From assembly GCA_043797665.1 (NCBI GenBank), contig JAZDPL010000065.1, forward strand, positions 1 to 64,000: 64,000 bases of DNA. Direction: 5' to 3'. Both the position numbers and the translations under genes were made by a program. Shown in pieces: positions 10,126 through 63,680 of this stretch. The notes under the pieces are model-generated. The model was not told where the DNA came from. It saw only the letters and a list, made by a program, of their open reading frames with translations, and made no database searches. The first letter of the stretch is position 1. The number at the start of each line of letters is the position of its first letter. Origin of the DNA: Candidatus Omnitrophota bacterium. GTDB lineage: Bacteria > Ratteibacteria > UBA8468 > MWAK01.

Positions 10126-10246
10126 TACAAACGCAGTAAGTAAGTTTACATCCTAAAATTGTAGGGGCTTGATTTATCAAGCCCGCCCCGTAAAAGGCGA
10201 TAGCCGCCTATACGGGGCCCGCGGGTCGGATAAATCCGACCCCTAC
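10126..10246. repeat. family B GTAG doublet (10161-10246) with a hairpin inserted in its spacer, preceded by a TACAAACG shell arm
   Basis: gtaggggcttgatttatcaagcccg[ccccgta...tacggggc]ccgcgggtcggataaatccgacccctac. Confidence 0.85.
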
Positions 10247-10498
10247 CTAAGCAGTCAGAATGGACACGAATTTCCGGCCGGCCCGGGTTTCAAAGAGCAC
10301 TTTACCGGTACTCAACGCAAAGATGGTGTGGTCTCTACCCATCCCGGCATTCTGACCGGCTTTGAATCGGCTGCCTCTCTGCCGAATGATAATCTCTCCG
10401 GCCGAGACTACCTGGCCGCCATAACGCTTTACGCCTAACCGTTTCCCGATGCTATCCCGGCCGTTCTTGCAGGCCCCTTGACCCTTCTTGTGTGCCAT
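10247..10498 (-). CDS. rpmA: 50S ribosomal protein L27
   Basis: [19 protein letters not shown]. Confidence 0.98.
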
Positions 10499-10520: not shown

Positions 10521-10724
10521 TGTCATTCTGAACCCTTTACTTCCTGTCATTCTGAGCCCTTCGTTTGTCATTCTGAGCCCTTCGTTTGTCATTCTGAGCG
10601 AAGCGAAGAATCTCAGGGTAAACTCCGTGAAGAATCCGACGTACTATGTCGTCCTGAACGAATGTGAAGGATCTCCCTTAGATCCTTCGTCCCTGAGTAA
10701 AGCACTCAGGAACTCAGGATGACA
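10521..10724. repeat. large family A cluster with tandem 21-bp units
   Basis: Four tgtcattctga starts (10521, 10545, 10566, 10587), then an inverted doublet ending ...ctcaggatgaca. Confidence 0.9.
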
Positions 10725-11010
10725 CGAATACGTCATATAGATCTATCCATTTAGGATTTGAAGAAACGATAAGATGCTCTTTTTTCTTTCTGAGCCATCC
10801 TTTAATCTGCTTTTCTCGTGATATCGCTGATTTCACTTCGTTTGTTTCTTCATAATAGACCAGTTTTGTTAAATTGTACTTTTTGGTAAAGCCTTCCACC
10901 AGTTTCTTTTTATGTTCCCAAATTCGACGCACCAAATTATTGGTTACCCCGGTATATAGAACCTTGTTAGTTTTGTTGGTTAAAATATAGACATAGTAGT
11001 TGTAAGGCAT
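10714..11010 (-). CDS. Stand-alone GIY-YIG nuclease (98 aa)
   Basis: YYVYIL...LYTGVTNNLVRRIWEHK...FTKKY...AISREKQIKGW; start moved to MPYNYY because the longer ORF runs through the tRNA. Confidence 0.92.
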   Translation of the reverse strand: MPYNYYVYILTNKTNKVLYTGVTNNLVRRIWEHKKKLVEGFTKKYNLTKLVYYEETNEVKSAISREKQIKGWLRKKKEHLIVSSNPKWIDLYDVFVSS

Positions 11011-11031
11011 GGTGCGTTTTTCAAGAAAAAC

Positions 11032-11058
11032 AGATTCTTCGTTGCACTCAGAATGACA
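11032..11058 (-). repeat. family A repeat between tRNA-Val and the GIY-YIG gene
   Basis: reverse complement reads tgtcattctgagtgcaacgaagaatct. Confidence 0.9.
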
Positions 11059-11068
11059 GACATCCAGG

Positions 11069-11141
11069 TGGGCGAGACAGGACTTGAACCTGTGGCCTTT
11101 CGGATGTAAGCCGAATGCTCTGCCAGCTGAGCTACTCGCCC
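11069..11141 (-). tRNA. tRNA-Val(TAC)
   Basis: GGGCGAG/CTCGCCC acceptor stem, AGCTCAGCTGGCAGAGC D arm, TTCGG-CTTACAT-CCGAA anticodon arm, GGTTCAAGTCC T arm; followed by CCT, so CCA is not fully encoded. Confidence 0.96.
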
Positions 11142-11198
11142 TTTTGCCTAATTTATTATTGTACCTCAAACCCGCAAAAATGACAAATAGGGAGGAGT

Positions 11199-11295
11199 GG
11201 ATTCTTCGGCACAAGACGCCTCAGAATGACAACGCTTCGTCATTCTGAGCGATAGCGAAGAATCTCGCTCAGGGTAAAAACTCCGCGAAGAATCT
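11199..11295. repeat. family A cluster
   Basis: ggattcttcggc...cctcagaatgaca, then cgtcattctgagcgatagcgaagaatct-cgctcagggtaaa-ctccgcgaagaatct. Confidence 0.85.
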
Positions 11296-11308: not shown

Positions 11309-12667
11309 TTACTTCAAAGAGTTGAGGAGGGTGGTGAGGAAGGACTGAATTTCCGAGAGGCGTTTTTCGGTTTTGGCTTCAAAGCGTAAAACCAGGGCGG
11401 GCTGGGTGTTGGAAGCCCGTACCAGTCCCCAGCCGTCTTCAAAATATACCTTGACGCCGTCAATCGTGGAAACATTATACTTGCCGGACAGTTCTGCCTT
11501 CAGGCGTTCTACCACGTTAAACTTCTCTTCGTCCGGAACTTCCACCCGGATTTCCGGCGTGGCGTAATAGGGGGTGAGACCGGCGACTAATTGCGATAGT
11601 TTTTCTTTCTGTCCTGCCAGATATTGCAGGAAACGGCTGGCCGAGTAAATGGCGTCGTCAAAACCGTACCAGTGGTCTCCAAAGTAGAGGTGACCGGAAA
11701 GTTCTCCGGCTGCCGGTGCGCCAATTTCGTGCATTTTGTCCTCAATCAGGGAATGGCCGGTCTTCCACATCACCGGTTTGCCGCCTAACCGGGCAATTTC
11801 CTCTTCCAGAGCCTTACTGCACTTAACGTCAAAGACTATGGAAGCGCCCGGGTTTTCCATTAAAATATCCCGGGAGAGGAGGGCTAAGATTTTGTCGCCC
11901 CAGATGAGATTACCCTCTTCATCACATAAACCGATTCTATCACCGTCACCGTCTATACCTATCCCTAATTCTGCCCCGGTCTCTCTGACCTTTTTAATTA
12001 AGTCAGCCATATTTTCCGGTACCACCGGATCAGGCAGGTGGTGGGGAAAGGTGTTGTCACTTTCGCAGTAGAGCGGAATTACCTCAACGCCAATCTCTGA
12101 GAGAATAGCGGTAGTTAAAGGACCGGCGGTGCCGTTTCCGCAGTCAACGACTGCCTTAACCGGACGAACCAGCCGGATACGGGCTTTGATTTCGGATTGG
12201 TACTCTGTTTCCATTTCTAACTTTTGATAAAGAATTTTTTCCGGAGAGGGAAGGGGTTCCAGACTTTCCATTATTTCCCGCAGGGATTGAATCTGTTGAC
12301 CGAAGATACTCTTGCGTCTGACCACTAATTTAAATCCGTTGTAGGCCGGCGGATTATGGCTGGCGGTTACCATAATACCGGCCGGGAAGGAATATTTGTG
12401 GTTGGCAAGGTAAAAGACCGGCGTAGGTACTTCACCCAGGAAGAATACTTCAACACCACTTGCTTGGAGTCCGGCCATCAATTTTTCGCTCAGAGCCGGA
12501 GAGGTCTTTCGGTTGTCGTGTCCCACCACCACCTTTTTCGCAGCGCCTTCTTTTCCAATGTAATCAGCAAAGGCTTGGCCTAAACCAAAGGCGAACTCCG
12601 GCGTCAGTTCCTTGTCCGCAATTCCCCGCAAATCATACTCCCGGAAGATACTCTTCTCTACCTTCAT
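11309..12667 (-). CDS. Phosphomannomutase/phosphoglucomutase
   Basis: FREYDLRG, TASHNP, DGDGDR, GELSGH and RASNTQP motifs. Confidence 0.95.
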   Translation of the reverse strand: MKVEKSIFREYDLRGIADKELTPEFAFGLGQAFADYIGKEGAAKKVVVGHDNRKTSPALSEKLMAGLQASGVEVFFLGEVPTPVFYLANHKYSFPAGIMVTASHNPPAYNGFKLVVRRKSIFGQQIQSLREIMESLEPLPSPEKILYQKLEMETEYQSEIKARIRLVRPVKAVVDCGNGTAGPLTTAILSEIGVEVIPLYCESDNTFPHHLPDPVVPENMADLIKKVRETGAELGIGIDGDGDRIGLCDEEGNLIWGDKILALLSRDILMENPGASIVFDVKCSKALEEEIARLGGKPVMWKTGHSLIEDKMHEIGAPAAGELSGHLYFGDHWYGFDDAIYSASRFLQYLAGQKEKLSQLVAGLTPYYATPEIRVEVPDEEKFNVVERLKAELSGKYNVSTIDGVKVYFEDGWGLVRASNTQPALVLRFEAKTEKRLSEIQSFLTTLLNSLK

Positions 12668-12698: not shown

Positions 12699-12802
12699 TG
12701 TCATTCCGGCGGATAGTAAGCCGGAATCTATACTCGTAATTACTGGATTTCCGCTAACCCCTGCTTATTGCATGCAGGGGCAGGCGACATGCGGGAATGA
12801 CA
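12699..12802. repeat. TGTCATTCC(C/G)GC doublet (family C) with a nested family D unit (12758-12785)
   Basis: tgtcattccggc...gccggaatcta ... tggatttccgc[cccctgcttattgcatgcaggggcaggc]...gcgggaatgaca. Confidence 0.85.
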
Positions 12803-18442: not shown

Positions 18443-18747
18443 AGGGGTTGCTAAACAATAAAATTGACTATTTGGAGTCCCAGATTTGAAGTCAGTGCAA
18501 GGCGCGACACGGGTCCCCTTGTCATAGGATTGACAAGGGAGGTTGCTGTGCCCACTGTGGCACATAACCGAGGAGCAACGCCGCAATGACCCAAAGATGG
18601 GATTCCCCGAAGGGCCAGGCCGCTTTTGGGCTGCGACTGCGTCGCTCATCGCTTGCGTAGCGCTGTGGATACGCAATCTTCTTCGCTCCTTGTCTCGCTC
18701 CAAAATCGCCTCTGGCAAATAGTTAATTTTATTGTTTAGCAACCCCT
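18443..18747. mobile_element. 305-bp MITE-like element with 32-bp terminal inverted repeats
   Basis: aggggttgctaaacaataaaattgactatttg (18443-18474) and caaatagttaattttattgtttagcaacccct (18716-18747) are 31/32 complementary; no transposase. Confidence 0.85.
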
Positions 18748-62843: not shown

Positions 62844-63680
62844 ATGAAGATTAAAATTTTAATAATTATTTTCGGGCTAAGTCTGTTTTGTGAATTTGTT
62901 TTAGCCGGTGAGACCGCGCAGGAGTACCATAAGCGGGGCCGTGCCTATCGTCTCAAGGGCGAATATGACAAAGCGATTGCCGACATAAGCCGGGCGATCG
63001 AGATTCAGCCCGATTTCTCCCGGGCGTATAATAATCGCGGACTTACCTATAAGGAAAAGGGCGAATACGACAAGGCGCTCGCCGATTTTATCAAAGCGCT
63101 GGATATTGACCCGAAGTATGCCAACGCCTACTACAACCGGGGAGTTATATATCATAAGAAAGGGGAATACGATAAAGCGATTGCTGATTATGACCAAGCG
63201 ATAGGGTTTAACCAGAAGTTTGTTTCCGCTTACACCGATAGGGGAAATGCGTACGCCTGCAAAGGAGAGTACCCGAAAGCGATTGCTGACTATGAGCGGG
63301 CGCTGAAGCTCGACCCGAAGTACGCACCGACCTATGCGGGGAGGGGATTTACGTACTGTAATACCGGTAAATATGATGAGGCGATTGCGGATTTTACCCG
63401 GGCGCTTAAAATAAACCCGGACGATGTTGAATCCTGTTGTAAAAGAGGGATCGCCTACGGGGGAAAGGAAGAGTATGATAAGGCTGTCGCAGATTTCTTC
63501 CGGGCGCTTAAGATTAACCCGAACTACGCCGAAGCCTATTACAACCGGGGGGTGGCATATTATTATAAGGGAGAATACGACAAGGTCTGGAAAGACGTAC
63601 ATAAAGTAGAAAGTATGGGATATAAAGTAGACCCGGGATTCCGGGCTGACCTGATCAAGGCTTCCGGCCGGGACAAATAG
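62844..63680 (+). CDS. Exported tetratricopeptide repeat protein
   Basis: Signal-peptide-like start; about seven 34-aa AY.NRG..Y..KGEYDKAIAD repeats. Confidence 0.92.
   Translation: MKIKILIIIFGLSLFCEFVLAGETAQEYHKRGRAYRLKGEYDKAIADISRAIEIQPDFSRAYNNRGLTYKEKGEYDKALADFIKALDIDPKYANAYYNRGVIYHKKGEYDKAIADYDQAIGFNQKFVSAYTDRGNAYACKGEYPKAIADYERALKLDPKYAPTYAGRGFTYCNTGKYDEAIADFTRALKINPDDVESCCKRGIAYGGKEEYDKAVADFFRALKINPNYAEAYYNRGVAYYYKGEYDKVWKDVHKVESMGYKVDPGFRADLIKASGRDK

Follow-up and report, generated by a model that had tools for sequence, protein, structure and literature searches.

What is a 98-residue nuclease doing in the middle of the densest cluster of hairpin repeats of a bacterial genome? The question arises in a stretch of 64,000 nucleotides (hereafter, the window) from a Candidatus Omnitrophota bacterium. 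The initial annotation, made from the letters of the sequence, had described there a 98-aa GIY-YIG gene (10714-11010) with one repeat 21 bp upstream and another providing its TGA, a description that the coordinates confirm. It had further proposed a REPtron-like unit, in which a minimal nickase recognizes the hairpin and drives its propagation. Which parts of this proposal hold, and what might the enzyme do to the repeats that surround it?

The locus and its repeats

The repeats at the locus form a family, here called family A, with a recurrent layout: a TGTC tag, a 5-bp stem, a GA step, an inner helix with its loop, a second GA step, the complementary 5 bp, and a C. A strict pattern of this kind finds 162 copies in the 2.69-Mb genome; three Markov-random genomes contain none, and neither does the genome when the pattern is reversed. 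A structure-based finder, which requires stem pairing and the final C, retrieves 234 copies versus none in the reversed genome. The tag of these 234 is TGTC in 230 cases and CGTC in four, and the stem begins with AT in 214. When pairing is not demanded (tag, GA..GA, and C), 162 of the 178 genome matches pair at five of five positions and 11 at four of five; when the final C is not demanded, nearly all GA/GA hairpins, judged by eye, still have a C next. The stem covaries, with 18 different complementary 5-bp stems among 216 hairpins flanking homologues of the gene, and across the homologue loci both GA steps are constant while the inner helix varies in length. Going by the general chemistry of such steps, they may form tandem sheared pairs.

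Family A copies are intergenic and often occur as inverted pairs. The 12 nt upstream of the tag hold no conserved target motif, only a lack of G. Genome-wide, there are 12 short arrangements of a half copy plus the next tag, as in the nested half copies at 10521-10637. Many copies are compact: in 122 of 162, the loop counts 3 or 4 nt and is closed by G..A, 61 of the 162 are exact GCGNAGC or GCGNNAGC, and the commonest loop is the 3-nt GNA. According to the accessible part of PMC13037366, such mini-hairpin motifs have a much higher stability as DNA than as RNA. DNA energies from ViennaRNA, weak for compact copies (-1 to -3 kcal/mol) and alike on both strands, miss this reported stability and were not used as evidence. 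The features of the locus are collected in Table 1.

Table 1. Features of the nuclease locus and of related genes elsewhere in the source genome (G000); positions are those of the window unless a contig is named
Feature	Position	Strand	Remarks
Single-domain GIY-YIG nuclease gene, assigned to the Ssn family	10714..11010	-	98 aa; Y8, Y19, R29, E66 intact; subtype motif K70-G-W-x-R-x-K-K77
Family A hairpin, same orientation as the nuclease gene	11032..11058	-	ends 21 bp before the ATG
Long-stemmed family A hairpin	10681..10724	-	GA/GA loop kept, 10-bp inner helix; provides the last codons and TGA of the gene
Family A copy facing the 10681..10724 copy	10647..10673	+	first stem pair is G-T
Full family A copy	10587..10612	+	inner helix is an exact GCGAAGC mini-hairpin
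Three 5' half copies of family A (10521, 10545, 10566)	10521..10586	+	remnant of an inverted copy after each
Leftover 3' arms of nested outer family A copies	10613..10637	+	parsed by eye from the sequence
tRNA-Val(TAC), host gene	11067..11141	-	directly upstream of the nuclease gene; without nuclease in 7/7 relatives
Family A copy upstream of tRNA-Val	11200..11231	-	repeat finder
CGTC-tagged family A copy (11238-11264) enclosed by what is left of two further copies	11238..11295	+	sequence and repeat finder
rpmA (L27), left-flank host gene	10247..10498	-	outside the unit; domain search and synteny
Phosphomannomutase/phosphoglucomutase (PGM), right-flank host gene	11309..12667	-	outside the unit; domain search and synteny
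Second intact Ssn gene, SsnA-like (W76)	G000:C85:18886-19176 (L001:2887-3177)	-	family B perfect-stem flanks
Third, decayed B-type Ssn copy	G000:C36:28850-29100 (L002)		frameshift near the second tyrosine motif

The cluster at 10566-11238 has six finder hits in 800 bp, one of them a composite whose 3' arm is common to the next hit. Initially described as the densest of the window, it is also the densest genome-wide, the next clusters having three hits. Elsewhere in the window, 12 full family A copies lie at 10 separate sites, and an earlier count of more than 10 other sites therefore stands for copies and is borderline for sites. The gene had also been placed right behind tRNA-Val. This tRNA is indeed directly upstream, but it lies inside the cluster, with two copies beyond it (11231 on the minus strand and 11238 on the plus strand); it is a host gene, outside the nuclease unit, and it likely supplies read-through transcription to the nuclease gene. 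A promoter scan at the locus returned one site against a shuffled mean of 1.3, which is the chance level, and a scan of the cluster for terminator-like sites returned none. A 166-aa ORF from a TTG at 11214 was rejected, as it would run through the tRNA. Sequencing runs were uninformative on excision and expression: no run contained more than 0.09 of the query words, the contigs were other organisms' repeats, and the listed runs matching the locus included no RNA run.

Other repeats occur nearby. A GTAG-tagged REP family counts 398 half-units in the genome and appears in the window at 2140, 7573, 10160-10246, 15185, 17270, 48517, 51891, and 58743; the pair nearest to the nuclease gene (10161-10246) lies beyond rpmA. 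On another contig, a weak Y1 transposase match (G000:C47:11285-11596, L215) has GTAG repeats on both sides and is a probable RAYT REPtron. Two palindromic families, CCCCTGC..GCAGGGG (window positions 12757, 54057, 54440, and 59768) and CCCTT..AAGGG (4520, 5779, 20259, and 46080), are often nested in copies of family A or of family B, a second hairpin family described below. The window also holds a MITE-like 32-bp inverted repeat pair (18443-18747), 97% complementary and 241 bp apart, and 102-bp periodic repeats in a coding region (62944-63583), likely TPR units. In G001, a genome of the same genus, partial duplications of the tRNA-Val 3'-end lie between rpmA and the tRNA, like integration-site remnants (L186:1330-1575); the window has none.

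Family membership and flanking hairpins

The protein has PF01541 (GIY-YIG, E 2.6e-17) as its sole Pfam domain. An NCBIfam search matched no family, and the sole match of a PDB sequence search was UPF0213. The single-sequence fold was poor (pLDDT 57.6), and an alignment-based model (pLDDT 94) was used instead; it resembles UPF0213 and Slx1 GIY-YIG domains, the best structural matches being BH0048 (1zg2) and Slx1. These short nucleases have the same fold, but their identity to the window protein is about 30% or less. Viral contigs searched with the window protein as single query gave no relative.

Is there a described family to which this protein belongs? The members of the Ssn family are cd10448 GIY-YIG proteins of a single domain, with hairpin repeats on either side of their genes (Chenal 2025, PMC11893778). 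In the accessible text of that paper, such genes are linked to CGTC-type hairpins and encode site-specific ssDNA endonucleases cutting beside the repeat. SsnA binds and cuts ssDNA only, and dsDNA, RNA, and the reverse strand are not cut; both the tag's G and the C that follows the stem are required, and the enzyme frees 20 nt from an oligonucleotide whose CGTC tag starts at base 25, which places the cut 4 nt 5' of the tag. In vivo, it lowers the integration of repeat-bearing transforming DNA, and this restriction is the sole in vivo role for any Ssn that the accessible text gives. The discussion of the same paper likens the repeat-ssnA-repeat arrangement to IS200/IS605 and REP elements, and suggests repeat expansion as a hypothesis only.

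By sequence comparison, the window gene is an Ssn-family nuclease. Aligned with the N. gonorrhoeae ssnA product, its own product shows 50% identity across 86 of 94 residues (E 4e-29 in the pairwise comparison, 5e-19 in tblastn), the ORF compared being the one with the ssnA primer sites of PMC11893778 and NTS repeats on both sides. That paper draws the family clade by an SsnA match of E <1e-10 over >75% of the length, and the window protein lies within this boundary when measured against the N. gonorrhoeae orthologue, not the N. meningitidis query itself. At 98 aa with PF01541 only, it also agrees with the description of an Ssn as a single GIY-YIG domain of <150 aa, and oriented, tagged hairpins of 20-50 nt flank its gene, as expected of the family. 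The 50% identity falls below a stricter filter of >=60%, which, in the accessible text of the paper, is a conservative one for close homologues.

The likeness to SsnA and its NTS repeats (SRM) extends to the details. Both proteins are a single GIY-YIG domain of ~95 aa with the catalytic Tyr, Tyr, and Glu kept; Y8, Y19, and E66 (SsnA Y6, Y17, and E64) are invariant in 154 hairpin-typed rows of our alignment and in 52 of 52 rows of another. The hairpins beside both genes are oriented, and in both the tag is (C/T)GTC, the stem starts with AT, and a C follows the stem. However, NTS has a perfect stem, whereas in family A a stem of 5 bp leads to a GA/GA internal loop and an inner helix that varies, and the window protein has G71 and K76 where SsnA-type proteins have K and W. 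The published SRM pattern is a search tool from 29 NTS-bearing genomes, and 58% of the paper's homologues are without a match on both sides (PMC11893778, accessible text). This pattern has no match within 1.5 kb of the window gene; it matches 3 of 80 loci of the relatives of this gene (best 80 of at least 592) versus 44 of 80 for the relatives of a paralogue introduced below. The mismatch marks the hairpins of the window gene as a variant, and the substrates in the accessible oligonucleotide table of PMC11893778 are all perfect stems, with no GA/GA type among them.

Family A also has much in common with the CGTC-tagged REPs, among which Neisseria CGTC-1 is dRS3 (PMC3733652). On the accessible description, the two share an unpaired CGTC/TGTC tag, an AT-starting stem, a short tail, and frequent inverted dimers. 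The CGTC REPs have a stem of 8-9 bp and a loop of 4-5 nt; the 5+2+2 positions of family A add up to 9 solely when the GA/GA pairs are included. Di Nocera (2013) reported, in the part of the paper that is accessible, no dedicated transposase for CGTC repeats and none flanked by them (PMC3733652). The initial annotation had likewise held that no enzyme is established for CGTC/TGTC repeats, which was true of that paper and is outdated by the Ssn endonucleases of PMC11893778; "nickase" does not fit either, SsnA being inactive on dsDNA (PMC11893778, accessible text). The gene-hairpin system had thus already been published in 2025, and finding it here is a rediscovery. The points discussed below (the GA/GA class, two orthogonal pairs in one genome, an empty site, and three residues that may set specificity) are absent from the visible text and supplements of PMC11893778, and three 10-base starts of GA-type repeats are absent from its 14 supplementary files. 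A literature search on cd10448 or GIY-YIG proteins with REP or dRS3 repeats, covering little of the subscription journals, found only this paper; in the accessible part of a 2026 preprint, SsnA loci serve merely as a benchmark.

Another question is whether hairpins accompany the gene elsewhere. The homologue set consists of the best 80 of at least 592 confirmed homologues, from contigs of one genome per species. Among these 80, a tagged hairpin lies within 300 bp of 75, and on both sides of 61. The density of GA/GA hairpins is 4.64 per kb close to the gene and 0.152 per kb at distances beyond 1 kb, a ratio that overstates the enrichment over intergenic DNA because the far background includes coding DNA. 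The source genome offers a fairer control: family A is found on both sides of 20 of its 2036 crude ORFs, window gene included, and on at least one side of 221. The GA/GA loci among the best 80 come from 14 named phyla, and the loci of four distant short GIY-YIG hits, with 33-43% identity, lack an adjacent GA/GA hairpin. The enrichment that the initial annotation had predicted is therefore borne out (61/80 versus 20/2036 on both sides), and the gene-hairpin link is real and specific.

Beyond the hairpins, nothing recurs in the neighborhood of these best 80 loci: no partner gene does (neighbors clustered by BLAST; the biggest cluster covers 4 of 80 loci), and no transposase does among the same neighbors, which were BLAST-clustered and not annotated. 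A tRNA lies within 500 bp of 1 of the 80 loci; on this count, tRNA-targeted integration was rejected, and the tRNA adjacency at the window locus is incidental. Some Ssn genes sit inside conserved operons or clusters (L185:1501-1794; L026), for example between sufB and sufC in Azospirillum, as a mobile unit would.

Protein subtype and hairpin subtype

The source genome encodes more than one Ssn. The intact paralogue on contig C85 is 61% identical to the window protein, and hairpins of family B, a perfect-stem, NTS-like repeat with 143 copies in G000, lie 16 and 4 bp from it. Each of the two intact paralogues is thus flanked by its own repeat family. A 97% identical copy of the C85 gene is present in G001. 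In the third gene, on contig C36, a different palindromic repeat truncates the frame past the conserved Glu region, and a degenerate family B hairpin lies upstream.

Does each type of protein keep to its own type of hairpin? Among the relatives of the window protein (best 80 of at least 592), 63 loci have GA/GA hairpins, nine have a GAG/GAA loop on an ATTGC stem, three have perfect stems, and five have none. The nearest 80 relatives of the C85 paralogue, from metagenome contigs and hence from a different collection, have perfect stems at 70 loci, none at 10, and GA/GA at 0. An internal control within one collection comes from the three perfect-stem loci retrieved by the window protein, two of which have W76 and the third does not. 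Overall, W76 proteins go with a perfect stem in 78 cases, with no hairpin in eight, and with a GA-type hairpin in none.

The residues that follow the hairpin type can be read from an alignment of 168 proteins, five short or distant rows and four duplicates having been omitted. Residue 71 is G in 62 of 65 GA/GA rows and K in 74 of 79 perfect-stem rows; residue 76 is K in 62 of 65 and W in 78 of 79, respectively; and residue 72 is G in 8 of 10 GAG/GAA rows and W in all 144 others. In the alignment-based model, residues 71-73 form the turn between two helices, and residue 76 is at the start of the second. From this position, residues 71, 72, and 76 may touch the DNA, reading the part of the stem directly above base pair five.

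A FastTree tree computed without residues 70-77 requires five changes for the three hairpin types. When rows with no hairpin are counted, 16 changes are needed versus a shuffled mean of 70.9, with 0 of 200 shuffles as low. The resolution of this tree is weak (89 columns; 18 of 165 branches starred), so that it shows clustering, not clades or direction; nor do related genomes count as independent cases. As judged from these alignments, protein subtype pairs specifically with hairpin subtype, and the earlier suggestion that nuclease type tracks repeat subtype agrees with the counts (63/80 GA/GA, best 80 of at least 592, versus 70/80 perfect stem for the relatives of the paralogue).

As for the third hairpin class, with the ATTGC stem and the GAG/GAA loop, its proteins mostly have G72 and not W; examples are L007, L014, L029, L048, L065, L077, L080, and L091.

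Turnover, spread and competing explanations

How old is this arrangement? A search of eight family genomes found the PGM, tRNA-Val, and rpmA block conserved in seven, the exception being G007, where no PGM turned up; the nuclease is missing from this site in 7 of 7 family relatives. In G001, with ~90% nucleotide identity to G000, the same gap contains family B hairpins, and a family B hairpin begins at the same left junction (10521). A 73% identical gene with GA/GA flanks is found in G006, at an unrelated locus. The comparison of G000 with G001 (309 kb of about 1.3 Mb) gave 58 gaps between collinear blocks. Family A is present in G000 only at eight of them (one uninformative, a run of N) and never in G001, and at five gaps, GTAG repeats in G000 stand in place of family B in G001; the alignments listed contain no target duplication or constant junction. 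Taken together, the empty sites and the gaps show that the repeats turn over rapidly between close genomes, and the likeliest reading is that the window gene reached its site recently.

No independent intragenomic copies of the cassette were found. Three gene copies in genome G045 were considered as proof of cassette transposition and rejected, as the downstream gene is common to all. The same genome (L220-L222) has ~370-420 family A copies, many as pairs of a half copy and a full copy, and a tandem array of ~52-bp repeat-derived units directly upstream of its Ssn gene.

Does the gene go with the number of repeats in a genome? Among 41 genomes around G000, a GA/GA-type gene is present in two of the six with >=10 family A copies (G000 and G006), and the cognate gene was not found in the other four (G003, G005, G009, and G013). 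The 35 genomes with <10 copies have no typed full-length gene of this type, a truncated hit in G007 not being typeable by motif; G001, with four A copies and 126 B copies, carries the B-type gene alone. Of the 82 genomes in the class of G045, 15 have >=10 copies and 67 have <10. The subtype motif is present in five of the former, among them the three with the most copies (370, 154, and 93), and in none of the latter (Fisher p 6e-4 with the centre genome omitted, overstated as kin are not independent); the other 10 repeat-rich genomes gave no hit above 38% identity. In a sample of 32 genomes from the bacterium's own phylum, the repeat is found in only four, and G014 has one motif hit without a protein match.

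Since the motif is seen only in genomes with >=10 copies, gene presence implies repeats, but the converse fails in 14 of the 21 repeat-rich draft genomes of both samples pooled, all or most of them incomplete assemblies. The link between gene and copy number foreseen in the initial annotation hence stands in one direction only. Repeat-rich genomes lacking the gene fit gene loss with persisting repeats, assembly breaks at clusters, or another route of spread.

A comparison with REPtrons helps to frame the mechanism. GIY-YIG enzymes cut by hydrolysis and form no covalent link with DNA; HUH enzymes become linked to it through a phosphotyrosine and are able to join strands again. With a REPtron (RAYT TnpA-REP, HUH Y1, GTAG REPs), the window unit shares an enzyme gene between cognate hairpins, solo genomic copies, and, as predicted here, recognition of ssDNA hairpins, with self-propagation putative in both. 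The two differ in fold, chemistry, and tag: the window protein has PF01541 only and no HUH Y1 domain (PF01797), the Y1 matches of the genome are on other contigs, and the flanking tags are TGTC/CGTC, not GTAG. By fold or tag, the window unit is not a RAYT or a REPtron, and "REPtron-like" holds for its layout only, because the window enzyme, unlike a RAYT, would hydrolyze DNA without a covalent link and could not join strands itself.

How could the hairpins spread, then? In the reading that we favor, the hairpin would fold once the DNA is single-stranded, and the enzyme would read the tag, the stem base, and the GA/GA step, and cut ~4 nt before TGTC. Host repair of these cuts would copy hairpins to new intergenic sites, often existing repeats, and sometimes the gene between them; recombination or template switching by the host at the shared TGTCATT tag would spread the repeat. 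Copying into existing repeats would explain both the nested half copies at 10521-10637 and the junction shared with family B. We consider this whole chain, from cognate hairpin binding through the ssDNA cut 5' of the tag to copying by host repair, to be probable, if by no means assured. As for its parts, the window protein very probably cleaves the ssDNA of its cognate hairpin, and its cleavage of ssDNA only, Mg dependence, and cut 4 nt 5' of the tag are predicted by analogy with SsnA; for a role in repeat spread, we see about even chances.

Other explanations have to be weighed. In the first, the enzyme has been domesticated for ssDNA restriction, like that of Neisseria: cognate to the hairpin, it trims incoming or recombining ssDNA at the repeats, which spread otherwise. 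In the accessible text of PMC11893778, no function but restriction is demonstrated in vivo for an Ssn, and repeat-rich genomes without a detected gene do exist. However, the lack of a fixed locus or conserved neighbor (at most 4 of 80 loci, best 80 of at least 592), the site empty in 7 of 7 relatives, and the decayed third copy form a pattern more like gain and loss than a kept host function. We regard this explanation as unlikely, although the two roles are compatible.

A second explanation, which we find less plausible still, is that another enzyme, such as a RAYT-like Y1 transposase, moves the hairpins, while the Ssn gene hitchhikes and merely recognizes or prunes them. Strand joining is beyond GIY-YIG chemistry, G000 has two Y1_Tnp matches, and the slots that hold GTAG in G000 and family B in G001 (5/58 gaps) could be accounted for in this way. 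Yet the C47 match has GTAG flanks with family A ~800 bp off, no transposase recurs beside the homologues (best 80 of at least 592), and none is flanked by CGTC repeats in the accessible text of PMC3733652. Moreover, the strict co-variation of protein and hairpin requires a selective tie between both.

It is very improbable that family A is an RNA element (terminator or mRNA stabilizer) with a secondary nuclease association. Its copies are intergenic and often inverted pairs, and RNA roles have been proposed for REPs (PMC3733652, accessible text), but the 3-nt GNA loop is typical of DNA mini-hairpins, the cluster scan gave no terminator-like site, SsnA ignores RNA (PMC11893778, accessible text), and occupancy varies between close genomes. 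Chance, by which a repeat-rich genome places repeats beside any gene, could account for family A on at least one side of 221 of 2036 ORFs, and is already refuted by the two-sided counts (20/2036 ORFs versus 61/80 homologues, best 80 of at least 592, in 14 named phyla) and by the four distant GIY-YIG hits without an adjoining GA/GA hairpin.

Returning to hairpin copying by host repair of Ssn cuts, a broader and more tentative idea, to which we give rather less than even chances, is that Ssn proteins are the missing mobilizers of the whole CGTC/TGTC REP superfamily. A three-way code would then operate, in which residues 70-77 choose the perfect-stem, GA/GA, or GAG/GAA hairpin.

If true, a 98-aa hydrolytic nuclease together with host repair would constitute a transposase-free route of repeat propagation, and orthogonal systems would coexist in one genome and compete for the same intergenic slots. 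With two intact Ssn paralogues and two repeat families of ~150 copies each, G000 is a clean test of the spread of CGTC repeats, and the same-genus genome G001, with one gene-repeat pair only, adds contrast. Ssn enzymes have been proposed as ssDNA tools, and a widespread subtype with a different target would give orthogonal cutters. Last, the three candidate specificity residues would help to explain how a hairpin is recognized by so small an enzyme of one domain.
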